NCBI GenBank assembly: GCA_045133095.1
Contig: JBGUTP010000004.1
Coordinates: 142,873-206,872, forward strand
Direction: 5' to 3'
Source of the DNA: Candidatus Enterousia sp.
GTDB taxonomy: Bacteria > Pseudomonadota > Alphaproteobacteria > Rs-D84
Length of the DNA: 64,000 nt
Part shown: positions 1,044 to 24,650 of the stretch, in pieces
How positions within the stretch are numbered: position 1 is the stretch's first letter
Layout of the letters: each line of letters starts with the position of its first letter
Notes under the pieces: model-generated
What the model was told of the DNA's origin: nothing
The model's input: the letters and a program-made list of their open reading frames with translations, nothing else
Database searches by the model: none
Translations under genes and position numbers: made by a program

Positions 1044-1278
1044 ATATAGCAAGGGGCCACATCCGTCCCTGTTCCAGATTAACTATGTATTGGCTAATGA
1101 CTATCTGACCCTGCTGGGGCTAAAGGAATATTGCAGTGATGTCGACAGCACGGCCCGCTATATTGCCGGCATGTATCAGATTCAGACCCAAACACAAACC
1201 ATGACACCAGTTGAGATGGAAACAGTACGTCTGACAGCCAAGGAAGTATACGATGCAATCAATTCTGAACGAATCTAA
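1006..1278 (+). CDS. Hypothetical small protein
   Basis: ORF only. It overlaps neighbours at both ends. No recognisable domains. Confidence 0.2.
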   Translation: MKKKEIQMITKIEYSKGPHPSLFQINYVLANDYLTLLGLKEYCSDVDSTARYIAGMYQIQTQTQTMTPVEMETVRLTAKEVYDAINSERI

Positions 1279-2284: not shown

Positions 2285-2315
2285 ATCGCATATACTTCTC
2301 TTGCCATACGACTAA

Positions 2316-4037: not shown

Positions 4038-4101
4038 ATGACCATTATAGATAATATGTCCAAATAATCAATTAAAGAACAAACACTTATATCACTGTTT
4101 T

Positions 4102-4443
4102 TCATTCCCCATCCGGGATTTCGGGGCTGGATACTTCGGTGATGTCATCAAATGGGATTTTGGTTTTGACTATGGTGATGTATCGGTATTCGGGGTCTAT
4201 GCGGGTGACCAGGCCCATTATGGTGTCATAGGCATCGGTCCGATAAAATCGCACCGTTATCATCATGCCCTTTTTAACCAGCGCAAGTTTCCGGGACAGT
4301 CGTTCGGCGGCATCGCCAATCAATTCCCGTCTGGGCTCAACCACCCGATTTTTAGCCAGCACCATCGCATAGTACCCACGCAGGGCCGCAAAAGGCATAA
4401 ACTGTTTTGCACGTGCGGTATTATCAGCCATTGTGTCCCCCAA
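4102..4443 (-). CDS. YolD-like protein (accessory partner of Y-family polymerase)
   Basis: 113 aa. It overlaps the 3' end of the upstream polymerase gene. Sequence and size are consistent with the YolD family associated with UvrX/UmuC on mobile elements. Confidence 0.6.
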   Translation of the reverse strand: MGDTMADNTARAKQFMPFAALRGYYAMVLAKNRVVEPRRELIGDAAERLSRKLALVKKGMMITVRFYRTDAYDTIMGLVTRIDPEYRYITIVKTKIPFDDITEVSSPEIPDGE

Positions 4444-8800: not shown

Positions 8801-8992
8801 CAGGCACTTTTCTTTTTCGGCAATGACATCCCTGGCCAAGAATTGTAACATTCTTGGGCTCGGCTTCTCTAAGCCTTTTATCAATGTACATATTCTGCGA
8901 TATTCTGACAAATCATAGTCAGAAAACGTTCCGTTTTGTATATCCCAAACGTACGCAGTTATGTCTAAATCTATTTGTGTCTCTAAATCCAT
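5846..8992 (-). CDS. UvrD/Rep-like superfamily-1 helicase with inserted restriction-endonuclease-like segment and four N-terminal ~33-aa repeats
   Basis: Walker A LAGSGKTGT. Q-motif region ATTFHSFA. DExx box FIDEFQDFS. Motifs V/VI GTIHSVKGQEADVVVI and FYVAITRAKEQLWI. Inserted KPDFLL...VWEHWG segment. N-terminal repeats carry a S/YE(F/Y)xxIC core. Confidence 0.8.
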   Translation of the reverse strand: MDLETQIDLDITAYVWDIQNGTFSDYDLSEYRRICTLIKGLEKPSPRMLQFLARDVIAEKEKCLQTKIAKLIEDFRTTLEAKYYWSEYQKICELIEQLNDAAFFSKQKEELWAMVEDRGLVIEIDSRIEMLVTNIEKKQQSLNYESIFHDICDMIKRLKEPAQRHLDFLSLDITAFVLETQLKAQIDEDIENFYQHWHTDGDISFSEFKAICSRIDKISRPSQKMLAFRQNEVSVRQYEEGKKLTEEIQKDMAHYRGLELPQIRIMRPELLKKLDNIDIPDVARLKNEVNSIIADKVVEWFEHHVTKNTNGDIYVVDRKQAMVIADEHKNLLVQALAGSGKTGTLVAKIVYLVAICNINPDSIIAFAFNKDAAKEINNRLASIRVDGQQIITKAVATTFHSFAYNNVRHNKILCDSKEQGPELSKFIQDIVFDNVSPEELYSVCRKLGHKIEKKYFVSEDDFYQMVRAQEYKTLDNTCVKSRAEKVICDFLFEHGIEYMYEPVCYTSNLWGIAKQNEREYLVQKESIKPDFLLKDSNLVWEHWGITGRETEEEIEKINAAGHIGKYSEYKTNMDWKKWFYAREWVDPSAVDYNKYAKQVKDWNGLVETYYNPTQSREEFENTIKELLNKQGIKTEKLSRDILVRQVWKSHMPDFAKLIAQFINRAQQSFLNDIEALEEKVKSVPEYTREREFLDIAIRIYKLYMQKIKEHNQYDMDFNMLMDKASKSIKDNQEVNITKKQYIFIDEFQDFSKLFFDFIDAIKQKNPYCNVMCVGDTYQAINRFAGSDVKYFDNFRNYFQYAYILTLDTNYRCNSNIVDNARVFMQKHMDSRESFNAHKSEPGNVNTLNISDVFIERRRAIDVTADADRIFKTKMSVSDKRAPEINAVRYLKSVVWIIKQNKDKNSIKLLHRNNDMSFWFVDIERFLAKVKEVCVELGIMSREEFEKKVSIGTIHSVKGQEADVVVILEADASIMSALHPDATLFEVFGETPNEVLKDQKRLFYVAITRAKEQLWILYNGADKTAFLNGLPANEIDPRTVKISETVNKH

Positions 8993-9052: not shown

Positions 9053-9460
9053 TTAGGCCAACACACCCATAAAACAATATGGTTTTTGGGATAAGATTTG
9101 CGACACGATTAAATCTGCTGGTAATTGTGGGTGAGATGGCAGGTTTGGAATTGATACCCAGTGCATATCGTCGTGGACGCGCAGTTGGATTTCACCAGTG
9201 TAGGATTTGATTTCGTATGTGTGCAGTTCGATAACCCGGCCTGAATCCGTTGTATGTTTTGCGATTGTAATCAAGTCGCCAATTTGTGCATCTATCCCCA
9301 ACTCTTCGGCCAGTTCACGTTTCAGGCATGTTGGGCCGTCTTCACCATCTTCAAACTTACCACCGGGATATTCCCACGTCCCCGCCAATGGCTGGCCAGC
9401 CGCCCGTCGCATCAACAAGACTTTGTCGTCATCCCTAAAAATCGCTGCAGTTACTTTCAT
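9053..9460 (-). CDS. mutT: NUDIX hydrolase (MutT-like), copy 1
   Basis: Nudix box GGKFEDGEDGPTCLKRELAEELGI. 135 aa. Confidence 0.8.
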   Translation of the reverse strand: MKVTAAIFRDDDKVLLMRRAAGQPLAGTWEYPGGKFEDGEDGPTCLKRELAEELGIDAQIGDLITIAKHTTDSGRVIELHTYEIKSYTGEIQLRVHDDMHWVSIPNLPSHPQLPADLIVSQILSQKPYCFMGVLA

Positions 9461-9559: not shown

Positions 9560-10006
9560 ATGTCTATCACACAAGATAACGGCAAAAAAGGCGAACAAGA
9601 AGTTGTCGATTTGGTATTGTGCCCAAATTGTAAAAAGAAATTGATGTTGTTGCCGCCGAATTATCCGTTGTGTGATATACAATGTACTGGCTGCCAATTC
9701 AGAGCACAGATTAAAACAGCAAACCATAAACCTTCATCTGTCATTCGTGGTGCAGGATGGGACATTATGGAAAAAGTGTTAAAAGCGGGTATACTGCCAC
9801 CATTACTTATTTTGAATTTCAAATGGAACGAAAAAGGCAAACAGTTTCAAGAAATTAGATTTTATCCATTTGTTCCAAAATCTCATTTGAAGAAATATAC
9901 CTTGTCACCAGAGGCTAGAAGAGCAAATTATAGGATGTTTAATTACGTAAATATGGATAAATTACCCTATGTAACACTGTATCAAAACCAAACAGAAACA
10001 GCATAG
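9560..10006 (+). CDS. Hypothetical protein with CxxC...CxxC zinc ribbon, possibly a PD-(D/E)xK-fold
   Basis: GKKGEQEV...LCPNCKKK...CDIQCTGCQFRAQIKTA. SD-like aggag lies 8 nt upstream of the ATG. Confidence 0.4.
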   Translation: MSITQDNGKKGEQEVVDLVLCPNCKKKLMLLPPNYPLCDIQCTGCQFRAQIKTANHKPSSVIRGAGWDIMEKVLKAGILPPLLILNFKWNEKGKQFQEIRFYPFVPKSHLKKYTLSPEARRANYRMFNYVNMDKLPYVTLYQNQTETA

Positions 10007-10176
10007 TTATACATCATGCGGAGAAATTCCGCAAACAGGTAATAGACACATAAATTTTATAAGCCTTATTAATCAGGCAATAATACAGCTGTAAGGTGCA
10101 GTACTTTTAACATATCATATGTATGACAATAAACATAAGCCCATACAGTATTAGACTAATGTACGAATTATACAAC

Positions 10177-11046
10177 TTAAATATTGGTATCGGATGGTAA
10201 AAACAACCAATTATATTCTGGAAAAGGTATTGGTTGGCCATAACCTAGACTTTTCATAATGCGCATAACTTCTTCTGCATGACAAGGCAAGTAATCGTGA
10301 CAATGCGCAGGAAAACTCTCTATAAATATAATTGGTTTGTATTTTTTTATAATATTCATCATCCCTTTTAGTGCTTCTATTTCAAAACCCTCTACATCTA
10401 TTTTTATAAAATCTAGTTTATTTACGTCCAATTTGAACCGATCTAGTGATACTATTGAAACAGAATATTTGTTTTTTGTATCTGACACTTTTATACTTGT
10501 ACCTCCAATATTATCAGATGCCATAAAATCAATTTCTCCCTTTCCATTATTGCTCCCCACCCCCATGTTAAAAGCCGTCACAATATTATCAATCTTGTTG
10601 ATTTTGATATTATTTGTTAACATTCTGAAGGTTTCTGGAATCGGTTCAAAAGCGATCACCCTTTTTGCTTCACCAACTGTCGCAAAAAATACCGAATGAT
10701 TGCCAATATTTGCCCCCACATCCAGTATGGTGGCATTTTTCGGTAAATATTTTAAAAGACGATAAAGAATATCTTGTTCAAAAAAATTAGATGTATTCAC
10801 TATGGTACGTTGAATTACATCCCATGGGTACAGCGGGCAATACATTTTTATAGAATTCGGCATTGTAAAAACGTCCTTATTTTGTATCAAAGACATTTTT
10901 CTACAAATAGTGTCTGTATCAGAATATACAGGGATATACTTTGGCAATATTCCGTGTTTCCTTTGGAATTTGCGACGGTTGTCTTTTGATATAATAAAAA
11001 AAGAGATTATTTTAAACACGCGTTGCATTATTTTTCCATATAACAT
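10177..11046 (-). CDS. FkbM-family SAM-dependent methyltransferase
   Basis: ILDVGANIGNHSVFFA...RVIAFEPIPETF...IDFIKIDVEGFE is typical of the Methyltransf_21/FkbM domain. Confidence 0.7.
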   Translation of the reverse strand: MLYGKIMQRVFKIISFFIISKDNRRKFQRKHGILPKYIPVYSDTDTICRKMSLIQNKDVFTMPNSIKMYCPLYPWDVIQRTIVNTSNFFEQDILYRLLKYLPKNATILDVGANIGNHSVFFATVGEAKRVIAFEPIPETFRMLTNNIKINKIDNIVTAFNMGVGSNNGKGEIDFMASDNIGGTSIKVSDTKNKYSVSIVSLDRFKLDVNKLDFIKIDVEGFEIEALKGMMNIIKKYKPIIFIESFPAHCHDYLPCHAEEVMRIMKSLGYGQPIPFPEYNWLFLPSDTNI

Positions 11047-11709
11047 TTAGTATATTTCCATTTTTTTATCCCAATCAATATTGTGTTTTACTATTTTTGC
11101 AGGATTACCAGCAATAACAGTATTTGTCTCTCTAAAACCCTTTGATATAACTGCGGCATTCGCAACAACCGTGTTATTTGGAATTTTTGCCCGTTTCGTA
11201 AAAATAGCATTTGCTCCAATCCAACAGTGATCACCAACAGTCAAAATGTCTTTTGGAATATTTATAACTCGTTTAGTGTCATTATCCATTAAGGCATGAA
11301 AATCAGAAGCCCAAACTTGAACATCCCTAGAAATCAAACAATCTTTACCAATACAACATTTTGCCCCAGCTGATATGTAAATGTGTATTTCGCTTATGTA
11401 TGTATTATCGCCAATAGAAAGATAATTACTATTTCCACGTTCCATTAATATATTTGTATCGTTAAACATGCAGTTTTTACCTAAATTTACAACATTATCA
11501 TCGGATAATATGGTAATATTTATGTTAGACTGGTTTAGCGGAAGCGAAATATAAATTCTATTATTATTTCCATGTATTTTAATTTTGCCTAGCTTTCGAA
11601 TTTCTTTTTGCCCCAGCTTAAAAAGCTTGTCATTGATAACAGCCGCGACAATGTTGTTTTTTCCTTTTACATCTAATTTTCTTGAATTAAATTTTAACAT
11701 ATCATGCAA
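11047..11709 (-). CDS. Hexapeptide-repeat (left-handed beta-helix) sugar O-acetyltransferase
   Basis: Repetitive [LIV]G..xxI hexads. The C-terminal HCWIGANAIFTKRAKIPNNTVVANAAVI resembles LacA/WbbJ/Vat-type acetyltransferases. Confidence 0.65.
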   Translation of the reverse strand: MHDMLKFNSRKLDVKGKNNIVAAVINDKLFKLGQKEIRKLGKIKIHGNNNRIYISLPLNQSNINITILSDDNVVNLGKNCMFNDTNILMERGNSNYLSIGDNTYISEIHIYISAGAKCCIGKDCLISRDVQVWASDFHALMDNDTKRVINIPKDILTVGDHCWIGANAIFTKRAKIPNNTVVANAAVISKGFRETNTVIAGNPAKIVKHNIDWDKKMEIY

Positions 11710-11761
11710 TATTGTAATTTATAGTGCTACTTTTTCAAGCTTTTTCTTGAAATTTGATATT

Positions 11762-12556
11762 ATGTGTATAATTATGGGAAAAAGAGGTTTTGCATTGATC
11801 CCAAAAATTTCCGTTTTTATGCCTGCATACAATTCTGAAGAATTTATAGCAGAAGCCATAGAAAGTATTTTAAATCAAACTTTTAAAGATTTTGAATTTA
11901 TCATAATCAATGATGGTTCTACAGATCATACGTGGGACATAATACAAAAATATGCAAGGCAGGACAACAGAATCCGCGCATACTCCAGATGTATAAACAA
12001 GGGGATTGTTTATACTGCTAATGAAGGCTTTGAACTTGCAAGGGGCGAATATATCGCTCGAATGGATAGTGACGACATATCACTACCTGAACGTTTTGAA
12101 AAACAGATAAAATATATGGAAACCCATCCCGACATCGGCTTGCTGGGGGCCTGGACACAGTATTTTCCGGGTTTTGATATCTCAAAAAGACCGGAGAACA
12201 TCAATTTGTTTTACCTATTAAAAGATTGCCCTGTAGACCAGCCTGTTGTAATGATTAGAAAATCAGTCATAGATAAATACCATTTACGTTATGATGAAGA
12301 CTATCTGGCATGCGAAGACCAAGAATTATGGTTCAGATTAATAAAAGTATCCAGGATTGCTAACTTGCAGGAATTATTGTTAATGCACAGATGGCACGGG
12401 AATAATATTTCAATCAAAATGGGCGACATTCAGCAACAGAACATCCAAAAAATTCGAAGACAGATTTTAAATTTCATAACGACAGACAAAAAAGAACAAG
12501 ATGCAATAAAAAAAATTATACCAGAAATGCTTGCACCCTTGCTATTAAAAACTTGA
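11762..12556 (+). CDS. Family 2 glycosyltransferase
   Basis: ISVFMPAYNSEEFIAEAIESILNQTFKDFEFIIINDGSTD...RMDSDDIS is the GT2 DxD architecture. The ORF track extends to 11585, but that part overlaps the convergent acetyltransferase; the internal Met at 11762 or 11774 is the likely start. Confidence 0.75.
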   Translation: MCIIMGKRGFALIPKISVFMPAYNSEEFIAEAIESILNQTFKDFEFIIINDGSTDHTWDIIQKYARQDNRIRAYSRCINKGIVYTANEGFELARGEYIARMDSDDISLPERFEKQIKYMETHPDIGLLGAWTQYFPGFDISKRPENINLFYLLKDCPVDQPVVMIRKSVIDKYHLRYDEDYLACEDQELWFRLIKVSRIANLQELLLMHRWHGNNISIKMGDIQQQNIQKIRRQILNFITTDKKEQDAIKKIIPEMLAPLLLKT

Positions 12557-12604
12557 CAATCTTGTTATCTGTGCTACAACATATGTAAACACAGGGGCTG
12601 TGAC

Positions 12605-14056
12605 ATGAAATTTGAATACGGTGTTGATTTAATACAATTAGCAGACAATATCTACTGTTTGAATAACGCCTATAGACAGACGCAAATTTTCGGAAACAGA
12701 AAACTCAAAGAATATTTTGAAAAAGTATGCAAAAACAATTCTGTGAATGCAGACGTGTACAACATGTTTTTACAAAATAATTTCTTAACAGATAAGCCGG
12801 CAGATGCGTACAAACAAAAACTATTACAAGATTCTTTAATATACAGTGCAAAGCCAGAATTTAACTTATTAAGAATTTTACTGACCGATGTTTGTAATTT
12901 AAATTGCGATTATTGCAAGGTTGTAAAATTGATAGATACCCCATCGGCAAAACCAACAAAACAAGAACGTTTGGAAGAAGCTATAAAGTTCTTTTTTGAA
13001 AATTCTATACCATATGAGCCTAAAATAATTCATATCACTGGCGGTGAACCCACATTGTTTTTTGATAGTATTAAGCAAATAGTACAATATAAAAAGAAAT
13101 ATATGCGCCCAAATGAAAATTGCTGGGTTGTGGTAGGCACAAACGCTATAGCTATAACACCAGATAAAGCAAAATTTTTTGCCGACAATAACATAAAATG
13201 TATTGTGTCAATGGATGGACCAGAACATACGCATAATTTATTACGAAAAAACCACGCAGGCCACGGAACCTGGGCAACAGTTGATAAAAACATTAAACTG
13301 TTACAATCATATGGTGTTGAAATATCTATTTCAGCCGTTATGGGCAAGCACACGATTTATAACGCTGATGAAAATATATCGTTCCTGGTTAATGAATACC
13401 ATCCAACAGGTCTGGGGATCAATTTTATGAAGCCACCAACCACAAATTCAGCTGACTATGAATATTTAATTGATGAAAAACTATATGCAGAAACGATGTA
13501 CAAACTGCATCAAAACTATCGAAACCGTGGCGTGTTCTTTGAGTTAATTTTCAGACACTTGGAACCATTTGTACAACAAACTTTCAGATTTCATGATTGT
13601 GGTGCTGCGGCCAGTAAAAATTTAAACATTGATGCAAAAGGAAATATCGGACCGTGCAAATCTTTCTTATTGCTAAATAAAATGGCTATGAAGGATATAA
13701 ATATCCAAGAATATATTGATATCGTATCTACAAATTGGGAAAAACGTTCACCAATTCATTTTGCTCCCTGTCAAAATTGCCCAAGTATCGGCATATGCGG
13801 AAATGGCTGTGCATATGATGCATTTATAAACAATAGCGATATGTTAGCCATAGATACACGAGGGTGCAAATATGTAAAATATTTTTATAAATTGTTCTTG
13901 CAAGACTTGTATGAAATATCGCGTAAAACACATAGCGGGCAAGATATTTTTATACCAACGCAATCTGATAGATTGCAAATGTTGGGAAATGTAAAAGAAA
14001 TTCAAAATTCCTTAAGTTATTCAATAGGACATCAGACGAAACTGTTTCAAAAATGA
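12605..14056 (+). CDS. Radical SAM enzyme with C-terminal SPASM/twitch Cys cluster
   Basis: CNLNCDYC is the CxxxCxxC motif. ITGGEP glycine-rich SAM motif. C-terminal Cys cluster CGAAAS...GPCKS...APCQNCPSIGICGNGCAYDA. 483 aa with an ~95-aa N-terminal extension. Confidence 0.8.
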   Translation: MKFEYGVDLIQLADNIYCLNNAYRQTQIFGNRKLKEYFEKVCKNNSVNADVYNMFLQNNFLTDKPADAYKQKLLQDSLIYSAKPEFNLLRILLTDVCNLNCDYCKVVKLIDTPSAKPTKQERLEEAIKFFFENSIPYEPKIIHITGGEPTLFFDSIKQIVQYKKKYMRPNENCWVVVGTNAIAITPDKAKFFADNNIKCIVSMDGPEHTHNLLRKNHAGHGTWATVDKNIKLLQSYGVEISISAVMGKHTIYNADENISFLVNEYHPTGLGINFMKPPTTNSADYEYLIDEKLYAETMYKLHQNYRNRGVFFELIFRHLEPFVQQTFRFHDCGAAASKNLNIDAKGNIGPCKSFLLLNKMAMKDINIQEYIDIVSTNWEKRSPIHFAPCQNCPSIGICGNGCAYDAFINNSDMLAIDTRGCKYVKYFYKLFLQDLYEISRKTHSGQDIFIPTQSDRLQMLGNVKEIQNSLSYSIGHQTKLFQK

Positions 14057-14655
14057 TAAAACAAAATCATTTATTTTCTGTTTTAATGACTGGTTACAGT
14101 ATTCTGAAACGACGCAATAATTTTGTACATAATTTTAACCATTGTAAACGCGTATTTTTTAATAATGTGCGGATTTTAGGGTTAAGTTCTTTACCAAGTC
14201 TTCGAATTTTAATATTATCGGCCATGTGGCACGACGTTGGACAAAACGACTTCAAACAACAAGCAAAAAATCATCATATATATTCCGCCAGACTATTCAA
14301 ATACTTTACTAAAGAACAAACATATTCAGACATAGTTGTGAATATAATTTTATGCCATAGAAATCGTGGAGCCAATAAGCAATTTTCTCCAAAGACATTA
14401 TTAGAAAAAGCTTTTTTCGATGCCGACAAATTAGACATATTAAATATACCACGATCAAAAAAACTGATAAAATTATACTCTTATGGGTTTTCGTGCGGAG
14501 AGTTTAATATCAAGGACACGCTTGATTTTTGGGAAAACTTTATTATAAACGGCGAAAAAACTTTATTCTTAGAAAGCTCCAAGAAAATATTTCGTAAGAG
14601 AATAAAAAAATTTATACAATTTGTCATATACACCAAAGGAAAATATAATGTCTGA
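14053..14655 (+). CDS. HD-domain-like phosphohydrolase (tentative)
   Basis: H/D-containing segments SAMWHDVG, ILCHRNRG and FFDADKLDIL. The ATGA start overlaps the upstream stop. Confidence 0.35.
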   Translation: MIKQNHLFSVLMTGYSILKRRNNFVHNFNHCKRVFFNNVRILGLSSLPSLRILILSAMWHDVGQNDFKQQAKNHHIYSARLFKYFTKEQTYSDIVVNIILCHRNRGANKQFSPKTLLEKAFFDADKLDILNIPRSKKLIKLYSYGFSCGEFNIKDTLDFWENFIINGEKTLFLESSKKIFRKRIKKFIQFVIYTKGKYNV

Positions 14656-16015
14656 TACGAACAAAGTGGAAATTACAAACATGGATGTTTTTTTTGATTA
14701 CGTCAAAAAACATTTTTTTGCCGACATTACAAACCAGCCATATTTATTGAAAAGCACCCCGAACAGTGTGTTGAACCCCATTCTAGACACATTAAAATCT
14801 CATTTGTCAGATGACAACGTCAAGCAAATAAAAAATATTTTGTTTTATAAGTGGATTTATACCAACGGAATGAAATCCCTATTATTGAATCCGCATTCAG
14901 ATTATATCATACGAAATAGTATTGGATATGAATTTACACCGAAACAAGAGCTTTATGGACATTTATTACAAATTAAAGACTATTTCGACTATATGATAGA
15001 TTTTTATATTGAAAAAAATATGGCTTATAAATTGAAATTAGCATTATTTACATCGGAAACATTTGAATCAGCATTTAATAAGGCAAATATCGAATTTGAA
15101 AAGAGAGTAAAAAGAAATTCTGCCTTGGGGATAGATAATGAAAAAAACATCCTGCTGCATCTGGATAATGGATATAAGCTTGTAAAATTAAATACAGTAT
15201 ACGATTTAGATTATGAAGGATTGTGCATCGGACACTGTATTGGCGAAGGTGTTTTAGACAAAGAAATTAACGACACAAAATCAACAATAACTATTTGCTC
15301 TTTGCGCAAAGACATGTTGGTAAAGGAACGTATCTCCGGTAAAAACATTGTTCGTTCAATACCTTTTGCTTCAATTGTCATAGATCGTTTTGAAAAACTT
15401 CCAAACGGAAAAATATCAGGCAATGTGATTTCCATTGAGGGGCACATCGCTGGGAAAGTTAGATACTACCTAAAAAACCAATTGGACAAACAAGATGCCT
15501 GGAAGGGAAGATTTCCCCCATATATTCATCCTACTTCCGTATCAAACGAAGAAATCGAGTGTCGGAACACCGAACTACAACGAACGCTAACAAACTTCTT
15601 TATGCAAAACAAATTGATAATATGCGGAGAGAGAAAGTATACAACATGTTTGACCCAGGATTATAAGATCGACATGCCAACAACATATTCTATAAGAATT
15701 CGGACCCAGGATGATTTAATTCGAGCTAGCCAACAAGGTTTTTATCATATTGTTATCCCTTCATACGATATGTTTATACCAACAATTCAGCCGATAAGGG
15801 TGGAGCCTTTTGAGAATAAACATAGTTTAAACATAACAAAGTCAGGAACATACGATTTAACGGAGATGCAGAATTTAAAAACAATAAATGTTTCTGCTAG
15901 CCAAGTAACAATATATTGTTATAATTGTAATAATTTGCAAAATATTAATCGTCTAACAGACACAAAAGTGTTGATAGAACGCAATAAATATAATATCATA
16001 CAAAACACTCACTAA
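14648..16015 (+). CDS. Hypothetical protein (~455 aa), no recognisable domain
   Basis: Long ORF inside a same-strand operon. The Met at 14648 follows ggaaa and overlaps the upstream gene end. It contains LDYEGLCIGHCIGEG. Confidence 0.45.
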   Translation: MSDTNKVEITNMDVFFDYVKKHFFADITNQPYLLKSTPNSVLNPILDTLKSHLSDDNVKQIKNILFYKWIYTNGMKSLLLNPHSDYIIRNSIGYEFTPKQELYGHLLQIKDYFDYMIDFYIEKNMAYKLKLALFTSETFESAFNKANIEFEKRVKRNSALGIDNEKNILLHLDNGYKLVKLNTVYDLDYEGLCIGHCIGEGVLDKEINDTKSTITICSLRKDMLVKERISGKNIVRSIPFASIVIDRFEKLPNGKISGNVISIEGHIAGKVRYYLKNQLDKQDAWKGRFPPYIHPTSVSNEEIECRNTELQRTLTNFFMQNKLIICGERKYTTCLTQDYKIDMPTTYSIRIRTQDDLIRASQQGFYHIVIPSYDMFIPTIQPIRVEPFENKHSLNITKSGTYDLTEMQNLKTINVSASQVTIYCYNCNNLQNINRLTDTKVLIERNKYNIIQNTH

Positions 16016-16026
16016 GGATTGCTTTT

Positions 16027-16896
16027 ATGAAAATATACAAAGATGGCTGGCTAGAAACTGGCGAGGGACATAGTATTTATTATATGTTATTAGGCAACCC
16101 AAATGGCACACCTGTTTTGTCTTTTCATGCTGGCCCTGGGGATTGTTCATGGGCAGGATTTTATGATTTTTTAGACGAAAAAAAATATAACATTATTACA
16201 TTTGACCAACGTGGCTGTGGAAAATCTGAGCCCTTTGGCAAAATAGAAGATAACACAATTGACAAAATTTTAGCGGATGCAAAGGCATTGCTTGACTTTA
16301 TTGGCATTCAGGATAAATGTATTTTATTTGGTGGGTCCTGGGGCAGCACTTTGGCATTGGCTTTTGGGGCAAAATTTCCACATATAACAAAATCCTTGGT
16401 GCTATCAAATGTTTTGTTGGGCCGCCATCATGATTTAAAAAAACTGATGTCTGATTTAAAAAAATTTAAGCCATTATCAGATTATGATGTTGATGAAAAT
16501 AATATATTCTTGAAAATAAAGCAGGCGATATGTAAAAACGATATTGAATTTTTGTCAAAATATAATGATTATGAAATATATAAATATACATTTCATAGAA
16601 GCGATGGGTTAAAAACAAATTTGATAGAAAAAGATTTCTTACAAAAACGTCTTTATTGTAACTTTTTATGTAACAACCTATTTTTGTCAAACAAAGGTAT
16701 TGTGAATGAGTTGCAAAAACTGTCTGACAAGCCCATTTTCTTGGTACATAATAAATACGACCCGATATGTAATATAGAGCAAGCACATCTTTTAAAAAAG
16801 CATCTACCACAAACAGAATTGGTCGTGTTAAACAAACGTGGGCACGGAGGAGATTTCCAAATTGACACACTTAAAAAATTCTTCAAAAAAGCTTAA
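16027..16896 (+). CDS. Alpha/beta hydrolase, proline-iminopeptidase-like (S33 family)
   Basis: Nucleophile elbow FGGSWGSTLALAFG (GxSxG) with HAGPGDC upstream matches the prolyl aminopeptidase pattern. Confidence 0.7.
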   Translation: MKIYKDGWLETGEGHSIYYMLLGNPNGTPVLSFHAGPGDCSWAGFYDFLDEKKYNIITFDQRGCGKSEPFGKIEDNTIDKILADAKALLDFIGIQDKCILFGGSWGSTLALAFGAKFPHITKSLVLSNVLLGRHHDLKKLMSDLKKFKPLSDYDVDENNIFLKIKQAICKNDIEFLSKYNDYEIYKYTFHRSDGLKTNLIEKDFLQKRLYCNFLCNNLFLSNKGIVNELQKLSDKPIFLVHNKYDPICNIEQAHLLKKHLPQTELVVLNKRGHGGDFQIDTLKKFFKKA

Positions 16897-18067
16897 TGTT
16901 TGTTTAGTTTATCCTGGCTATCCGCCATATGAACAAGAATCCGGGGGGATTGCATCATATGTCCAGGAAACAGTACAGTTTTTGACCGCATCGGGGCACA
17001 ATGTTGTTGTTATTTCCCGTGCGCCTAGCATATCGCACATTATCAAAAAAAACACAAAAGGCGCCCATATTATATATCTGCCACATTTCTTGCCACGCAT
17101 CAGCAAATTATTTCCCCTGTTAAAATTTAATAAATACGGGGCATATTTTTATTCATATAAAGCATACAAATATTTAAACAAGATAGAAAAAGAAACTCAT
17201 ATACGATTTGATGTTATTGAAGCTAGCGATTGGGGCGGCGAAGGTTATTTTTTTGTAAAGAAATTTCCAAAGAGAACAATTATAAAATGTGACACCCCAA
17301 GTTTTATATCAGAATCATACAACCCAAACAACCCGGCGTATTTAAGTTCTTTTGTAAAAAGGCTAGAACAAAAAACATTATTAAATGCTAAAAACATCGT
17401 ATCAAACAGTAAAAAATTAATGCAAAAAATAAATAGCGTACTACATAAAAAATTATCTTTTACTTTGATTCAATTATCAATGAAAACAACGCCTGCCTAT
17501 AAAACAAAGTACGAGAGCAAATTTTCAAAAAATAATCCAATGAAAATTATCTTTTCTGGCAGAATAGAGAAACGAAAAGGGATTTTCAACCTAATAAAAG
17601 CGGTAAAACAACTGAGAGATCAGGGGATATTTTTGGAACTTTATTGTTTTGGTGCTTCAACGCCTGTTAAACAAACGGACACCATAACAATATTACAAAA
17701 TAAAGGATATGAGTGGCTTCATTTTTATGGTTCTGTTCCAAGGAAACAAATGATAGAACAATATAAAAATTATGATTTATGTGTTGTTCCGTCCGTATTC
17801 GACAGTTTTTGCCTTACAGCACTGGAAGCAATATACTCAAAACTGCCAACCATTATGTCTAACACGACCGGCATTACAGATTTAATATCCAACAAGAGCC
17901 TTGTTTTTTGTTCGTTTGACGAAATGCTATTGAAGCTTAAAGATGCATACTATAACTATTCAACCTATATCTCAGCAATCAACTCTACCTCAACTGAATT
18001 ATATCATAAAACACAGACAGCTAATAGGGACCGATTAAATTATTATTATAAAGTCTCACCCACTTGA
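16838..18067 (+). CDS. Family 4 (GT-B, group 1) glycosyltransferase
   Basis: The N-terminal LVYPGYPPYEQESGGIASYVQETVQFLTASGHNVVVIS and C-terminal RIEKRKGIFNLIKAV...EAIYSKLPTIMSNTTGITDLI match the GT4 pattern. The 59-nt overlap with the upstream gene leaves the start uncertain. Confidence 0.7.
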   Translation: MGTEEISKLTHLKNSSKKLNVCLVYPGYPPYEQESGGIASYVQETVQFLTASGHNVVVISRAPSISHIIKKNTKGAHIIYLPHFLPRISKLFPLLKFNKYGAYFYSYKAYKYLNKIEKETHIRFDVIEASDWGGEGYFFVKKFPKRTIIKCDTPSFISESYNPNNPAYLSSFVKRLEQKTLLNAKNIVSNSKKLMQKINSVLHKKLSFTLIQLSMKTTPAYKTKYESKFSKNNPMKIIFSGRIEKRKGIFNLIKAVKQLRDQGIFLELYCFGASTPVKQTDTITILQNKGYEWLHFYGSVPRKQMIEQYKNYDLCVVPSVFDSFCLTALEAIYSKLPTIMSNTTGITDLISNKSLVFCSFDEMLLKLKDAYYNYSTYISAINSTSTELYHKTQTANRDRLNYYYKVSPT

Positions 18068-18129: not shown

Positions 18130-18220
18130 GAAACGCCGCCAGTGGCTGGTCAGCCGCCCGTCGCATCAGCAGAACTTTATCACCATCCCTAAAAATCGCA
18201 GCAGTTACTTTCATATTTCC
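18130..18220 (-). pseudogene. Truncated 5' fragment (~90 nt) of the NUDIX/mutT gene
   Basis: The sequence ccagtggctggtcagccgcccgtcgcatcagcagaactttatcaccatccctaaaaatcgcagcagttactttcat matches the first ~30 codons of both full mutT copies, including the ATG. Confidence 0.6.
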
Positions 18221-18265
18221 CTTCATAGCTCTGATACGCCCCCGTTCTTCCCCATAGCAATATGA

Positions 18266-19828
18266 TTACTTTTTTGATGTTTGCCTCTGTTTTTCTATAT
18301 TCTTAAAATATTCATCCCATGGAAAAGGTTCATTTTGATTCCACTTACCCATTCCTTGTGCGCTTGTTGAAGATATTGCAGAATCCTTAACTATATTAAT
18401 GGGAATAATACCATCTGGGCACTCTATTTCCACTATTGTTGAAGATATTGCAGAATCCTTAACTATATTAACGGGAATAATACCATCTGGGCACACTATT
18501 TCCACTATTGTAGATTCAACATTATAATCATTGTTTTTTAGCGCCCGCAAATATAATCTTAGTTGTTCCTCACAGTATTCAAGATATTTTCCGTTTATAT
18601 TCTTTCCAGTTTTAAAATCCGCTAAATACTGACATATATTATTTCTTATAATCACCAAATCACACCTTCCTTTCACTCCATCTAAACTAACAGAAAACTC
18701 TGTCTGCATCCCTGCCTTTCTGCTTAAATGTCTTGCGATTTGCCTTGAAACTTTCTCCTTTAAATCATCATAGGACATGCGGCTACCATCTTTATAATAC
18801 TCAGCGAGTTCAGCATGTACACGCTTTCCTAATTCTGTATTATCATCACTAAAATCTACATCTGAAATTCCAACGATTTTTTTTGCTGCCTCGCTAATAG
18901 TTTCTGCATTTATCGCCTCTATCTGAACCAGTTTACAGGTTTTGATATCCGTACTTTTTTTTGATATTAGCTTATTTTCAATCAATTTAGAACTTGGTTC
19001 ATCGAGTTGTTTTTTTATCGAATCCGATGACGTTTTATCTTTGAAACTACTGGCTTCTTTATCCAGAGTGCTTATTGCCTCCTGATCTTTATGCGTTTTT
19101 TTGGAAGGTATTTGTTCAGAGACACCATAATACCTCAAGCCTTCCAAAGGATGTTTTGTTTTGCATTTTTTCAGATTTTTATTATACGCATTATCTATTT
19201 TTTGTAAATACTTGCCACTTAAGCACCTCTTGTATTCCTTTAACTGCTTCTGGATCGTTGGCTCAAATAACCTATGCTTATTATTAACAATAAAACCTAT
19301 TGCTTGTTCTGATGCCTTTTCGAGATAATATTCTAAAAACTGTTGTTTACTTGGCTCTGGCAGCAAATTGATACTTTGCTTTATCTTGTTATGTTTTTTT
19401 TTGCATAGTACCCCAGTAAGATTATCATCTATAAACCGTTCAATCAATAAACACAACAAACTTTCATAATACTTAACAATGCTCTTTTTATCTTTGTTCT
19501 GTAATTTTTCTATATTACGCTCTATCTGCTTACGTACCTTTTCATTAAGTAAATCGTTCTTTCTGATATATTTTTTTATCTGTCTGCTTAAACAAGAAAA
19601 ATAATAACTTTTTAAGTTTCTTTTATATTTCTTATTTGACTTAGTTAATAATTTTTTGATCATTCTAGCATCAGCTTCTTCCAACAAATTAGCTTTTCTT
19701 ATAATTCTTTGTGGCACAGAACAGTTCAAATACCAGAATATAATAGAATATAATCCCAGAGTAATCACATTTAAGAAAGCGTTATTATTGTTTTTTGTCA
19801 TATTATCTCCTCTTTTGCGGCTCTGCAT
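18266..19828 (-). CDS. Hypothetical protein: N-terminal TM helix, Lys-rich middle, 24-aa tandem repeat, RecB/Cas4-type PD-(D/E)xK nuclease motif
   Basis: N-terminal LNVITLGLYSIIFWYL is hydrophobic. GRCDLVIIRNNICQYLADFKTGK resembles the D...(I/A)D(Y/F)KTG RecB-family motif. IVEI(V/E)CPDGIIP(V/I)NIVKDSAISST occurs twice. Confidence 0.5.
   Translation of the reverse strand: MQSRKRGDNMTKNNNNAFLNVITLGLYSIIFWYLNCSVPQRIIRKANLLEEADARMIKKLLTKSNKKYKRNLKSYYFSCLSRQIKKYIRKNDLLNEKVRKQIERNIEKLQNKDKKSIVKYYESLLCLLIERFIDDNLTGVLCKKKHNKIKQSINLLPEPSKQQFLEYYLEKASEQAIGFIVNNKHRLFEPTIQKQLKEYKRCLSGKYLQKIDNAYNKNLKKCKTKHPLEGLRYYGVSEQIPSKKTHKDQEAISTLDKEASSFKDKTSSDSIKKQLDEPSSKLIENKLISKKSTDIKTCKLVQIEAINAETISEAAKKIVGISDVDFSDDNTELGKRVHAELAEYYKDGSRMSYDDLKEKVSRQIARHLSRKAGMQTEFSVSLDGVKGRCDLVIIRNNICQYLADFKTGKNINGKYLEYCEEQLRLYLRALKNNDYNVESTIVEIVCPDGIIPVNIVKDSAISSTIVEIECPDGIIPINIVKDSAISSTSAQGMGKWNQNEPFPWDEYFKNIEKQRQTSKK
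18366..18509. repeat. 72-bp tandem direct repeat (2 copies, near identical) inside the 18266-19828 CDS
   Basis: gttgaagatattgcagaatccttaactatatta(a/c)(t/c)gggaataataccatctgggcac(t/a)ctatttccactatt recurs with period 72. Confidence 0.8.
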
Positions 19829-19926: not shown

Positions 19927-20313
19927 TTACTTTCCTTTGGTTACCAGGGTTTCTGATACAATCAAATCTGCTGGCAATTGTGGATGGGATGGCAAGTCTG
20001 GGACTGGCACCCAGTGCATATCGTCGTGGACGCGCAGTTGAATTTCACCGGTATAGGATTTGATTTCGTATGTGTGCAGTTCGATTACCTTGCCTAAATC
20101 CGTTGTATGTTTTGCAATGGTAATCAGGTCGCCGATTTGTACATCTATCCCCAACTCTTCAGCCAGTTCACGTTTCAGGCATGTTGGGCCGTCTTCACCA
20201 TCTTCAAATTTACCACCGGGGTATTCCCATTCACCCGCAAAAGGTTGGGCCGCCGCCCGTCGCATCAACAGAACTTTATCCCCATTTCTAAAAATCGCAG
20301 CAGTTACTTTCAT
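19927..20313 (-). CDS. mutT: NUDIX hydrolase (MutT-like), copy 2
   Basis: Nudix box GGKFEDGEDGPTCLKRELAEELGI. About 90% nucleotide identity to copy 1 over most of the gene, diverging at the 3' end. Confidence 0.8.
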   Translation of the reverse strand: MKVTAAIFRNGDKVLLMRRAAAQPFAGEWEYPGGKFEDGEDGPTCLKRELAEELGIDVQIGDLITIAKHTTDLGKVIELHTYEIKSYTGEIQLRVHDDMHWVPVPDLPSHPQLPADLIVSETLVTKGK

Positions 20314-20457: not shown

Positions 20458-21015
20458 ATGACACAAGTGTCAAGTGCGGTTGATGTGCTGTGGAATTTGT
20501 ATCTGAGGCACCCGGAAAAACTGAGTAAGGTTGACTGGGAATACCTGATACGGAATCGAGCAGATGCATTAGTACGCGAAATACTGATTAAAGATATGCG
20601 CGAACACATAAAGCCAACACAAGATAAACATGAACAGCAATGGCTGATAGCCAACCAGGAAACTTTGCAACACATTGGACAATGTGTTGCGGACGGTGGG
20701 GCGGTCGCATACATGGACCTGATTGCGGCAATTGATGCGGGGGTGGATATAAATATCCTGAAATACCTGATATCAAAGTGCGACAACATAAATGGGTGTG
20801 ACGAAAATGGGCAGACAGCCCTGCATCACTGTGCGCAGAATTATGTTAGTTTGGATTTGATGAACGAATTACTAATCGCAGATGCAAACAGTGCCGCACA
20901 AGACCGACACGGCAAAGAGGCCCGCGATTACCTGGACAAAGATGTCTGGGGAGAAGACTATGTGACGGCATTACTGATGTTGCGTCCATGCTGGACATAT
21001 TTTTATGACGAATAA
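20458..21015 (+). CDS. Ankyrin-repeat-containing protein
   Basis: NGCDENGQTALHHCAQNYVSLDLMNELLIADANSAAQDRHGKEARDYL fits the ANK consensus G-TALH-A...LL..GA. A second degenerate repeat lies upstream. Confidence 0.5.
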   Translation: MTQVSSAVDVLWNLYLRHPEKLSKVDWEYLIRNRADALVREILIKDMREHIKPTQDKHEQQWLIANQETLQHIGQCVADGGAVAYMDLIAAIDAGVDINILKYLISKCDNINGCDENGQTALHHCAQNYVSLDLMNELLIADANSAAQDRHGKEARDYLDKDVWGEDYVTALLMLRPCWTYFYDE

Positions 21016-21572: not shown

Positions 21573-24500
21573 TTAGAATTCATACCTGAAGTTTACACGA
21601 CCGGTTTGAGATGTGTAATCTGAACGCGCTTCGATATCATAATGCAACGAGATATCAAAACCCATGTAATTCATGCTGACACCAATGCCAATTTCATTGG
21701 CTATTCGCGACAGACGTTCACCACCAAGAATATAAGCATTAACACCAGGCATCGCAACCGTTATGTTGTTATCATCAGACACTATATCATACTTAACCGC
21801 ATAGTGGATGTTTGGACGAACCGACCAACCATTGACAAAGTACAAATCAAAAGCATATTTCGTACCCAAAGATGCAGTCAAATAATCAGCACTGTCGATG
21901 CTGTTTTTTACGCCCAATGAAGTGGTATAATCCGTTGAGTTTAGATGAAGGTAATGAAGGGCGACCTCTGGTGTGATACCACCAATAAAATTATACCCTG
22001 TGGCAAGGCGCGCACCAAACATATCTATGTCATAATCCGAAGAAACGCCAACACCAAAAACAGACCCGTCTTCGGTATAATCAGACATAGTATAGTTCAT
22101 GACCGCGTTTGCATACCAGGCACTTGGTTTGTATTGACCGTAAACAAACATAGTCGATGAATCTATGTCCGTGTCGCGTGAAGAACTGCGGATATCAGAA
22201 TGAGAATACATGTAACCTATCCCCAAAGTCCAAACGTCATTAACCGTGCCATCAAACCCGGCGGCAATGCCACGAGTATAACCATTAAAAGCACTGTTTA
22301 ACTTGGTCTTGTTGTATAATCCCTGCGCCCAGATGCCACCAAAGTCAAGTTCCGCATCGCCACCACTGCGCCCAATGCCAGACATAGTAACACGGTCCGA
22401 TATCAGGGATGCTATTGTATGCTGAACCGATTGCCCGACGGATTGAACAATCCCGGACTTTTCAGGATTAATCGCAGAACCTGCCTGTTCTACGTCGCGC
22501 AAATCAGCAGATGTACCAGATGCCAATTTTTCTTGGAACATCACGGAAATATTATTTAATCGTACAGACGATGAATCAGAGGCACCCGCAATTGCACGCG
22601 CCGTATCGTCAGTCAGATTGTTTTGAGCGGCTATGTCTTCTGCGGATTTGATTGTCGCAGTAACATCGCCACCATCCCAAACTAAGTCATAAACAGAACT
22701 GCTGATGTCAACATTGTTAAAAACTTGATTTCCAAACACCTTGTATGTTCCCGCCTTGTCAAAGGACAATTTTAGTAACCCAGTACCCGTAAAGCCGTCG
22801 GCATTGTTGACAGTTATCTGGGCGTTGTCGTTACTGCGCAAGGTTGCAAGCATCGTTCCATCAAGAATTATTGCGCCCTGGGTTATATCAGATGTGCCAA
22901 TATCAACCGTCGCGCCAGATGCAATGCGCAATGTACCCGTTCCATCAATGCCGCCGTCCAATATCGCATCACCATTAAAATTTACCGTACCAGAATTATA
23001 AATATCATTGGATGTGCCGCCTGCGGTGTTACCAGAAAATGTAGCGTTGCCGTTAAAAGTCACCGTGTCATTGTTATACAATGCACCACCCATGCCGACA
23101 GATGAATTGTTTGCAAATGTTGTATCGCCATTGAAAGTAATCTGGGCAGAACCTGTTGAACCATCACTTGCCGATACAAAATTCCAAATCGCACCACCAT
23201 CTAGTTCAGACTGATTCCCAGAAAACTTTGTTGTACCATTTATGATTATTTCAGAATCTTGACCGGCACCATCAAAGGCACGCGCCACTATCGCGCCACC
23301 GTATGCCGCAGACTGATTTGAAGTAAAAGTGTTTGTACTGTTCGTGGTGCCAATAACCAGGGTGGCAGTACCTGTGTTCCCGCGGTTATGAATTGCACCG
23401 CCACCACTTTTGGTCGTTCCTGCATCGCGCGCGATATTGTTTGCAAAGATGTTTTCTTGGCCAGCGATTGTTAAATCTGATGCGTTAAAAACAGCACCGC
23501 CATAACCTGCGTCAGATGCGTTTTCAGAAAACGAAACGCCGGATGCCGACAACATTATCTGACCACCATTATCCAGTGCGCCCGCGCTGCTGGACGTTGT
23601 GTTTGCAGAAAACAGAACGTCGCCCGATGTGTTTACGGAAACAGTACCTGAATTTTTTAAGCCGCCACCATTACTGCCGGTATTATTGGAAAAAACTAAA
23701 TCGCCGCCGGTAACAGACACCGTGCCTGTGTTGACCAACGCGCCATTGTATGTGTTAGTATTATTATCAAATGTTGCGCCCTTGGCAAAGGAAACAGTGG
23801 CGGTTGATTTATTGTTTAGCAATGTGCCAACACCTGTATTTTGGGTAAAGGAAACAAAATCCCTGAACGCGACGGAATTTGCAGATTCACCAATATAAAT
23901 GGCGGACGCGCCGGCGGCACTGTTTTTATTAAAAGTCACAGCCTGTTCAAAAGTTGTGTTGCCGCCCATAATCGCCAAGGCTCCACCATTTGCGGTGGCA
24001 CTGTTGCTTTGAAAATCTGCGGTGCCATTAAATATCATGTCGCCAGCCGAGATAATTGCGCCGCCTTGGGATGCGGATTGATTCCCAGAAAATTTAGACA
24101 TACCATCAAATACAATCATACCATTGCGATGATTGATTGCACCACCGCCGGCATATACACTGTTGGATACCCCTGTCACAGAATTACCAGAAAAATTCGC
24201 GTTGCCATAAAAAATTATATCCGGGTTCGTTGCATTACCTAGGCCATAATTAAATATCGCACCACCACCATTGATGTTGTTTGTGCCATTGCCAGTAAAA
24301 GTCGAACTGTTGGCGAAGACTATCTTGCCACCTTGGGTATAGCCTGTACCAGTCGTCGATGACAACCAACCATTTCCAATAACGCCGCCCATTCCACCAT
24401 TGTTTAGCGAATTGCCGGCAAATAACGCGTCACCTTCAAACGACAAGACAACTTCAGGAACATCTTGCATATAAAAAACACCGCCGTTATTTGCCGTTGT

Positions 24501-24650
24501 TGATGCAATGTTTTGCGCGACAGCATCTGTGTATGTTGTATTTTCTGAAATTACCGTACGCCCCGAAATAGTTTCCGACATCGCAGGCATTATAAATAAT
24601 GCCGGCAACACAGAAACACCAAACAAAATATTTTGAAAAGAATTTTTCAT
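21573..24650 (-). CDS. Autotransporter outer-membrane protein with Pmp-like (GGA[ILV]/FxxN) passenger repeats
   Basis: Signal peptide MKNSFQNILFGVSVLPALFIMPAMS. Many GGAI/GGAL and F(S/A)xN motifs. The C-terminal beta-barrel ends ...VNFRYEF. Confidence 0.8.
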   Translation of the reverse strand: MKNSFQNILFGVSVLPALFIMPAMSETISGRTVISENTTYTDAVAQNIASTTANNGGVFYMQDVPEVVLSFEGDALFAGNSLNNGGMGGVIGNGWLSSTTGTGYTQGGKIVFANSSTFTGNGTNNINGGGAIFNYGLGNATNPDIIFYGNANFSGNSVTGVSNSVYAGGGAINHRNGMIVFDGMSKFSGNQSASQGGAIISAGDMIFNGTADFQSNSATANGGALAIMGGNTTFEQAVTFNKNSAAGASAIYIGESANSVAFRDFVSFTQNTGVGTLLNNKSTATVSFAKGATFDNNTNTYNGALVNTGTVSVTGGDLVFSNNTGSNGGGLKNSGTVSVNTSGDVLFSANTTSSSAGALDNGGQIMLSASGVSFSENASDAGYGGAVFNASDLTIAGQENIFANNIARDAGTTKSGGGAIHNRGNTGTATLVIGTTNSTNTFTSNQSAAYGGAIVARAFDGAGQDSEIIINGTTKFSGNQSELDGGAIWNFVSASDGSTGSAQITFNGDTTFANNSSVGMGGALYNNDTVTFNGNATFSGNTAGGTSNDIYNSGTVNFNGDAILDGGIDGTGTLRIASGATVDIGTSDITQGAIILDGTMLATLRSNDNAQITVNNADGFTGTGLLKLSFDKAGTYKVFGNQVFNNVDISSSVYDLVWDGGDVTATIKSAEDIAAQNNLTDDTARAIAGASDSSSVRLNNISVMFQEKLASGTSADLRDVEQAGSAINPEKSGIVQSVGQSVQHTIASLISDRVTMSGIGRSGGDAELDFGGIWAQGLYNKTKLNSAFNGYTRGIAAGFDGTVNDVWTLGIGYMYSHSDIRSSSRDTDIDSSTMFVYGQYKPSAWYANAVMNYTMSDYTEDGSVFGVGVSSDYDIDMFGARLATGYNFIGGITPEVALHYLHLNSTDYTTSLGVKNSIDSADYLTASLGTKYAFDLYFVNGWSVRPNIHYAVKYDIVSDDNNITVAMPGVNAYILGGERLSRIANEIGIGVSMNYMGFDISLHYDIEARSDYTSQTGRVNFRYEF

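Follow-up and report, generated by a model that had tools for sequence, protein, structure and literature searches.

Keeping a promiscuous nuclease at the membrane is a means of separating self from non-self DNA that was recently demonstrated for SNIPE and, less directly, for Shield, two unrelated enzymes and so far the only examples. The SNIPE protein (PD-lambda-1) of Escherichia coli combines an N-out transmembrane (TM) segment, a DNA-binding DUF4041 domain and a GIY-YIG nuclease, and it cleaves phage DNA during injection (PMC13190303). A form deleted for the TM segment is toxic and attacks the chromosome (PMC13190303; Saxton et al., Nature 2026). The tether alone can give a direct, non-suicidal defence, and among the relatives of SNIPE the N-terminal region is hypervariable and the nuclease domain conserved (PMC13190303). 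In Shield, a system reported to be restricted to Pseudomonas, the ShdA protein carries a TM segment and, on the cytoplasmic side, an RmuC domain whose fold is restriction-endonuclease-like (Macdonald et al. 2023; PMC10270631). One gene suffices; anchorless forms could not be cloned and were suggested to be genotoxic; ShdA is a non-specific nuclease in vitro and the system gives population-level immunity (PMC10270631). Here, we analyze a gene on the reverse strand of a 64-kb stretch of a Candidatus Enterousia genome (positions 142,873 to 206,872 of contig JBGUTP010000004.1, assembly GCA_045133095.1; in what follows, the window). Its product is very probably a membrane-tethered, catalytically competent RecB-type nuclease, and we consider whether its history and surroundings suit a role in immunity.

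The open reading frame (ORF) at 18266-19828 (reverse strand) is uninterrupted and has 520 codons if read from its first ATG at 19828, the length assigned to it by an annotation of the window made beforehand (the original prediction). The frame is indeed intact, but the product is most likely 511 residues long and started at ATG 19801 (Met10), because an AGGAG resembling a Shine-Dalgarno sequence (19811-19807) lies 5 nt upstream of that codon and because the NCBI-derived protein P0001, which has 511 residues and is 100% identical to the window protein, is annotated from Met10. Residue numbers below are those of the 520-aa form; subtracting 9 converts them to the 511-aa form. The features of the gene are as follows.

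18266..19801, reverse strand: coding sequence of the putative membrane-tethered nuclease, 511 aa from ATG 19801, stop codon 18266-18268
19721..19780, reverse strand: N-terminal hydrophobic helix, residues 17-36 (AFLNVITLGLYSIIFWYLNC), by hydropathy, its topology predicted from the positive-inside rule
18929..19711, reverse strand: orphan basic helical middle, residues 40-300, linker net charge +29, by composition, with a weak ~45-aa internal repeat
18440..18868, reverse strand: RecB/Cas4-type PD-(D/E)xK core, residues 321-463, by Pfam, family alignment, AlphaFold2, Foldseek and the ratio of nonsynonymous to synonymous substitution rates (dN/dS)
18364..18507, reverse strand: two tandem 72-bp units encoding IVEI(V/E)CPDGIIP(V/I)NIVKDSAISST
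18269..18363, reverse strand: conserved C-terminal tail (SAQGMGKWNQNEPFPW...EKQRQTSKK), 95% identical in DNA to a short-form homolog in L001 (blastn)

The nuclease domain carries most of the argument. Pfam PDDEXK_1 (PF12705) matches residues 363-435 at E=2.6e-5, its score of 24.7 bits lying marginally above the gathering score of 22; the relatives P0009, P0010 and P0013 pass as well. Since this score alone was marginal, an alignment of 18 family sequences was built. In it, the window protein retains H338/E340 of motif I (H-x-E), D390 of motif II (GRCD), D404-F-K406 of motif III (ADFKTG) and Q422-LRL-Y426 of motif IV (QLRLY), and P447 is invariant throughout. The AlphaFold model obtained with this alignment has a predicted local distance difference test (pLDDT) score above 94 for the core (mean 80.8), and the modelled core adopts the restriction-endonuclease-like alpha/beta fold. 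Foldseek matches it best, in the PDB, to Cas4 (4r5q, 4ic1, 7mi4), AdnAB, RecB and AddAB, nearly all of the top hits being of the RecB family, and among the viral predicted structures of BFVD the best-ranking are phage PD-(D/E)XK, exonuclease, DUF2800 and Cas4-like proteins. A profile of the family aligns with the AdnB nuclease domain motif by motif, but weakly (E=0.2); in PHROGs the window protein has only weak "exonuclease" matches, and P0002 matches phrog_298 at 5e-7. In three pairwise comparisons the dN/dS of the nuclease domain was 0.11-0.14, and the domain is therefore under purifying selection. The RecB/Cas4-type motif noticed in the original prediction is thus borne out by the Pfam score, the conserved motifs, the confident core and the fold matches, and the protein showed no homology to any family of structural proteins or secreted effectors. 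We infer that the C-terminal domain is a catalytically intact, and presumably active, nuclease of the RecB/Cas4 PD-(D/E)xK type.

The two other parts claimed for this protein, a TM helix at its N-terminus and a lysine-rich middle, are also present. Residues 17-36 reach a Kyte-Doolittle mean of 1.51 over 19 aa, which is borderline; the relatives have stronger hydrophobic segments of unrelated sequence (mean 2.83 in P0002 and 3.06 in P0006; three segments in P0004). In all five of the TM-bearing proteins (the window protein, P0002, the extended L002, P0004 and P0006) lysines and arginines cluster after the last hydrophobic segment. According to the positive-inside rule the Lys/Arg flank of a TM segment faces the cytoplasm, and the nuclease domain is hence predicted to be cytoplasmic. 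The hydropathy, though borderline, and the charge bias are consistent with an inner-membrane anchor that carries a cytoplasmic nuclease. Residues 46-300 contain 19.2% lysine and have an isoelectric point (pI) of 9.7, whereas the C-terminal part (the last 220 residues) is acidic (pI 5.3); the composition of this middle region suggests that it probably binds DNA or a partner. The N-terminal 267 aa had no homolog at E<=1 in a word-indexed search, and sequence searches of the PDB with the full protein and with its N-terminal 301 aa yielded nothing meaningful. Modelled by AlphaFold from the single sequence, the whole protein reached a pLDDT of 42, its middle being all-helical at low confidence. A weak internal repeat of ~45 aa scores 59, against 38.7+-6.8 for shuffled sequences (shuffle maximum 54); there are at least two and possibly four such degenerate helical units at 19460-19720 (residues ~45-134), with the signature K..LL.E ... 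(K/S)YY..(S/C)L ... I..(Y/F)I. A match of residues 48-182 (19283-19687) to the sigma-70 extracytoplasmic-function model TIGR02937 (E=2.4e-4; 20.8 bits versus a cut-off of 42.9) was judged to be compositional or helical noise; it is nonetheless the sole clue to the nature of this region.

The family is very rare. Apart from the identical P0001, the word-indexed searches of 5.8 billion proteins returned only the shorter homologs P0002 and P0003. When 1.84 billion cluster representatives were searched exhaustively with an HMMER profile, 18 matches were obtained, one of which (P0017, an FMN_bind repeat protein) was rejected as spurious. The closest homologs, P0002, P0003 and L002 (the last when read from an upstream Met), are short forms of 294 aa that consist of a hydrophobic N-terminus (Kyte-Doolittle 2.7-2.8), a basic linker of ~87 aa, the nuclease and one 24-aa unit. 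P0004 (E=1.6e-38) begins with three hydrophobic segments, which a basic linker rich in Asn and Lys connects to the nuclease; in P0006 there is a single hydrophobic segment and motif III is degenerate; P0005 has no TM segment and its motif III is likewise degenerate. Wherever a relative has a linker it is basic (pI 9.2-9.8). The hydrophobic segments and linkers of the TM-bearing members are unrelated in sequence. Comparison of these proteins indicates that a tether plus a nuclease is a conserved design with interchangeable front ends. P0005 (L084 6474-6980) has changed the D of motif III to Y, and P0006 (L086 512-994) its D to I and its K to E; both are probably catalytically dead, since these residues are lost. 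P0005 is also cargo of an integrase/AAA_25/SocA_Panacea element that adjoins mnmG.

The more distant relatives P0007-P0019 (the spurious P0017 excepted) are soluble proteins of ~280 aa with neither TM segment nor basic linker. An ERF annealase is encoded directly downstream of P0009, the sole one of them checked in context, on a phage-like contig of 40 kb. An exonuclease and an annealase form a classical recombination pair. Because of these soluble relatives and of the position of P0009, we conclude that the protein has its nuclease core in common with phage recombination exonucleases and that this core has been joined to membrane anchors. No match to the nuclease domain or to P0009 was found by tblastn in 50,697 GenBank phages, and a protein scan of species-representative genome contigs found no relative.

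The end of the nuclease core has been duplicated. Tandem Repeats Finder reports 2.1 copies of a 72-bp unit at 18364-18511 (97% identical, score 282), in frame and far beyond chance; the two mismatches between the units are both non-synonymous. The duplicated stretch comprises the last beta-hairpin of the core and the linker that follows it. In the family alignment, the conserved hairpin with the invariant Pro corresponds to the first 24-aa copy; the second copy has low pLDDT. Matches of this repeat to CS6 fimbrial proteins in the Pfam and PDB searches were dismissed as noise. Among the proteins that cluster with the window protein at 90% identity, P0020 has one copy and 487 aa (511 minus 24), the repeat of P0022/P0024 measures 20+24 aa and has other boundaries than the 24+24 of the window, and P0021/P0023 have had their whole C-terminal end replaced by a homologous, divergent version that contains a short repeat of its own. 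The copy number is thus a strain-variable feature, as one might have anticipated from the original description of a near-perfect duplication that should be recent or variable. In P0021/P0023 the divergence begins after QLRLYLRA: the hairpin differs, and the new tail carries a SKKQEN(T/I)T repeat. In L094 (7138-7375) the gene joins the region upstream of IMS (Y-family polymerase) directly, without a mutT stub. This junction and the replaced tail are suggestive of recombination with another, unsampled member of the family.

The gene was originally described as wedged, as a single-gene insertion, between a mutT fragment and a second mutT copy. The wedge is confirmed by the following features.

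18136..18265, reverse strand: ~51-nt conserved spacer and mutT 5' stub (start codon 18214; ~80 nt of mutT kept, 18136-18214/18221)
19927..20313, reverse strand: mutT-like NUDIX copy 2, full length, 128 aa, 98 nt upstream of ATG 19828
9053..9460, reverse strand: mutT-like copy 1, a further full copy, 135 aa, at the far boundary of the low-GC Island A (9.47-18.13 kb)

Copy 2 matches Nudix/MutT-like models of NCBIfam, all of them under the equivalog cut-offs. The conserved unit consists of the nuclease 3' end, the ~51-nt spacer and the start of mutT, of which 80 nt are kept in the window, at least 94 nt in L002, 65 nt in L087-L091 and 46 nt in L093. A full 128-aa mutT precedes the long form in all three strains (the window, L093 and L094; 96.5-96.9% identity over mutT and nuclease), and the outer flanks on both sides differ among the three. 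An insertion into a hotspot is therefore what the locus displays, but not of a lone gene, since the nuclease travels with a full mutT-like gene and a mutT stub. When 80 species-representative Enterousia mutT loci were searched by tblastn, the nuclease gene was found in none; hence, it is a rare accessory gene. It is located in low-GC, foreign-looking DNA. A promoter/terminator scan at the locus was uninformative (16 sites versus 10.3 expected), and an Rfam scan of the window revealed one tRNA only, distant from the nuclease.

The usual gene order is ankyrin (forward-strand mutT being preceded by ankyrin on the reverse strand), mutT, a variable gap, IMS, a DUF4379 protein and an integrase. The mutT-IMS gap measures 0.76-0.9 kb in its smallest alleles and reaches 4.8 kb in other genomes. 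In the window it spans 14.2 kb and holds the nuclease gene, the mutT stub, Island A, mutT copy 1 and a 1048-aa GajB-like helicase; elsewhere it is occupied by UvrD-like, CoiA-like, PDC-S11, AIPR-like or HNH/type IV restriction-endonuclease-like genes, or by unknowns. A second insertion point lies within the first ~20-80 nt of mutT. In L045, for example, a 5.5-kb island (tyrosine integrase, GNAT, ABC-F, Fic) is inserted between a 21-nt stub and a regenerated mutT. This 5' end is a recurrent insertion point (the window; L045 4473-10387; L048; L046), with stubs of 21, 24-34, 46, 65 and 80 nt, and each island is then followed by a regenerated or further mutT, with at least four different types of upstream leader. 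Many contigs of metagenome-assembled genomes (MAGs) end at mutT, which suggests that assemblies break at the mutT repeat. An integron-like cassette or homing-endonuclease origin of the mutT-flanked layout was considered and is unsupported, because the stub lengths vary and the neighbouring islands bring their own integrases.

Several further observations concern this hotspot. The block formed by IMS, a DUF4379/DUF2726/NUMOD protein, a tyrosine integrase and orf176 (1253-5686; also in L006, L024, L036 and others) has 94-99% protein identity across species-level MAGs, and the adjacent mutT just 81-93%; the block may be a recently spread integrative element. In L087 (~11040-11090) a reversed lookalike of a tRNA 3'-half directly follows the 65-nt mutT stub, ARAGORN finding no intact tRNA there, and a TIR/restriction-modification/integrase island comes next; the tRNA-like sequence is probably the att remnant of a tRNA-targeting island. 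An ankyrin-repeat protein (20458-21015, forward strand) and a 1025-aa Pmp-like autotransporter (21573-24650, reverse strand) adjoin the hotspot in the window. Such proteins are usually linked to host or partner association, and their presence in a genome of less than 1 Mb deserves attention. With mutT as the probe, the window was assigned to an alphaproteobacterium of order Rs-D84 that resembles Candidatus Enterousia. The published Enterousia MAGs come from the guts of farm animals, measure about 1 Mb or less and have a reduced metabolism (PMC12306168). Even in so reduced a genome, the mutT 5' end and the mutT-IMS interval persist as a hotspot of gene turnover.

Genes of defence type lie around members of the family. 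In the window, the 1048-aa helicase (5846-8992, reverse strand), which is UvrD-type and low in GC, matches the GajB models of PADLOC at 1e-40. It has an N-terminal extension of ~300 aa and no obvious GajA partner, and could represent a Gabija-like defence gene, either fused or novel. Island A (9560-18067; 30-35% GC, no integrase) includes a DpnI-like methyl-directed restriction endonuclease (mREase_II). It also contains an FkbM methyltransferase, a hexapeptide transferase, a GT2, a radical-SAM/SPASM maturase, an HD protein, an orphan 464-aa protein, a prolyl-aminopeptidase-like hydrolase and a GT4, and the island may be a cluster for peptide modification or glycosylation. The short form was found in 46 or more collection blocks; its neighbours include a PDC-S35 TIR protein (3e-77), an AccI-type restriction endonuclease with its methyltransferase, an integrase, PDC-S01 (6e-113) and AAA_15/21 ATPases. 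The association of the family with defence-type genes in variable islands is a qualitative one, not a statistical enrichment.

We propose that the short N-terminal helix anchors the protein in the inner membrane, leaving a few residues outside and most of the chain on the cytoplasmic side. The basic helical orphan region of ~260 aa would serve as a spacer and probable DNA- or partner-binding adaptor, and the C-terminal domain of the RecB/Cas4 family, kin to the Erf-associated phage exonucleases, would do the cutting. So tethered, the enzyme would meet mainly DNA that crosses the membrane: an injected phage genome and, possibly, conjugative or transforming DNA. Its preference for incoming DNA would be a consequence of its confinement to the membrane, at a distance from the nucleoid. 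The gene itself would be accessory cargo of a mutT-associated recombination/integration hotspot, which in Enterousia-like genomes carries varying defence-type genes. A role in defence, which we infer from the architecture and the neighbourhood, has in our judgement about an even chance of being correct.

A number of points weigh against it. PADLOC assigns the window protein to 0 families, and it has no homology to catalogued defence proteins. RecB/Cas4-type domains are typically end-dependent exonucleases. The hydropathy of the long-form anchor is borderline by Kyte-Doolittle, the only scale used, and the Foldseek support is modest (best PDB E=2.7e-3, TM-scores ~0.3-0.45). The second copy of the hairpin could impair the enzyme in the strain of the window. 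Guilt by association is weakened by the glycosylation and radical-SAM genes that the hotspot also carries in Island A, and the host is uncultured.

The same architecture and defence-island context would also fit an abortive-infection (Abi) or toxin effector, in which an inactive tethered nuclease is released or activated upon infection or membrane perturbation, degrades host and phage DNA alike and kills the cell. Such behaviour would agree with the population-level immunity of Shield and the non-specific cleavage by ShdA in vitro (PMC10270631), and the short form does adjoin a TIR effector-type protein. But no sensor or regulator partner accompanies the gene, the neighbours in the window, L087, L093 and L094 differ and include no consistently adjacent protease or antitoxin gene, and SNIPE illustrates that a tether by itself can bring about direct defence without suicide (PMC13190303). 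Although sequence alone cannot separate an Abi effector from direct defence, we regard the former as unlikely. Of the original suggestion that the gene resembles abortive-infection/defence effectors, we thus retain the defence part, as our own interpretation; its closest precedents are direct-defence membrane nucleases and not Abi systems.

The nuclease could, alternatively, work for its own element, either by helping the mutT-linked cassette to recombine, persist or spread, in the manner of a homing or Exo-like enzyme, or by excluding competing elements. MutT 5' sequence accompanies the gene in every case, and a whole mutT gene accompanies the long form; the C-terminal end is a mosaic; among the relatives that lack a tether, the nearest are phage recombination exonucleases adjacent to Erf; and P0005 travels within an integrase/AAA_25/SocA element. 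Neither a membrane anchor nor a 260-aa basic spacer would, however, be expected in a recombination or homing enzyme, and there is no annealase partner at the window locus. No RecB-type domain is known to be sequence-specific, and with stubs that vary (21-80 nt) and adjacent islands that have their own integrases, a site-specific nuclease encoded by the cassette would be unneeded. An element-serving function seems improbable to us.

Export of the nuclease by a signal peptide or anchor to the periplasm or beyond, where it would scavenge nucleotides or attack neighbours, is a decidedly doubtful explanation. It might suit metabolically reduced genomes of less than 1 Mb (PMC12306168), and the very hydrophobic segment with which the short forms begin ends in VNA|D, similar to a signal-peptidase site. 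Yet the n-region of the short forms is acidic or neutral rather than basic, and the Lys/Arg cluster directly after the hydrophobic segment, found in 5/5 proteins, disfavours export under the positive-inside rule, as do the net charge of +29 in the long-form linker and the K-rich stretch that follows the three hydrophobic segments of P0004. The characterised domains of the RecB/Cas4 family are, moreover, cytoplasmic enzymes. That the gene is a decaying phage exonuclease remnant without present function, as its low-GC foreign-looking DNA, the rarity of the family, the lost motif III residues of P0005 and P0006 and the duplicated hairpin might suggest, is highly improbable given the intact 511-aa ORF with its Shine-Dalgarno sequence, the low dN/dS, the retention of all catalytic residues, the 96-97% identity of the long form across three samples and the spread of the short form over many collection blocks.

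If a membrane-tethered immune nuclease is indeed what the gene encodes, then a three-part protein without homology to the known ones would show that the strategy is convergent and modular, with anchor, adaptor and nuclease all swappable. We would go further only tentatively, and with less than even confidence: the family may be a third, independently evolved lineage of such "spatial" immune nucleases, in which a phage Exo-type domain fused to interchangeable anchors and adaptors cleaves DNA as it crosses the inner membrane, the strain-variable C-terminal hairpin and tail tuning specificity or regulation. The superfamily and the concept are known; the combination of interchangeable anchors, an orphan basic adaptor and a phage-Exo-type core is not catalogued. 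The 294-aa short form, present in many metagenome contigs, is a compact and testable candidate. Should the defence role prove wrong, there would remain an ordinary accessory nuclease of a mobile island.

How the protein stands among known systems can be stated part by part. With Cas4 (Pcal_0546, 4r5q; SSO0001, 4ic1) and with RecB, AddAB and AdnAB, its best structural matches, it has in common the motif set of the RecB family; unlike them, it has no associated cas genes and no helicase fusion. No Cas_Cas4 (PF01930) match was found in it at E<=10 and no CRISPR-cas among the annotated neighbours, and it is not Cas4 proper, because the 18-sequence alignment has no invariant or near-invariant Cys column that could provide the four-Cys Fe-S signature. 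With the phage Erf-associated exonucleases (P0007-P0019; PDDEXK_1/DUF2800) it shares a homologous core (profile E 2e-12 to 4e-4) and the motifs H-x-E, G-x-x-D, D-(F/W)-K-(T/S)-G and Q-L-x-L-Y. Those enzymes, unlike the window protein, have an extra N-terminal beta-hairpin segment and a Gp157-like C-terminal helical part, and no annealase was found near the window gene in the ORF list or among the annotated neighbours. Like ShdA, it appears to join an N-terminal TM anchor to a cytoplasmic nuclease of PD-(D/E)xK fold, its topology being predicted; its domain is PDDEXK_1/RecB-like and not RmuC, and neither Pfam (PF02646) nor PADLOC finds RmuC in it. From SNIPE it differs in having an orphan basic region and a RecB/Cas4-type domain in place of DUF4041 and GIY-YIG, without homology, neither DUF4041 nor GIY-YIG (T5orf172-type) being matched in Pfam at E<=10. 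Since the layout corresponds while DUF4041, GIY-YIG, RmuC and PADLOC matches are all absent, the protein would work like SNIPE and ShdA without belonging to either family, and the probabilities seem to us evenly balanced that it is a single-protein membrane-tethered immune nuclease, analogous to both in action and homologous to neither. With SNIPE it shares, at any rate, a conserved nuclease, a variable N-terminal part and a location in defence islands, and also the whole predicted plan of the molecule: a single polypeptide with a short N-terminus predicted to lie outside, one TM segment, a positively charged helical middle and a nuclease at the C-terminus.

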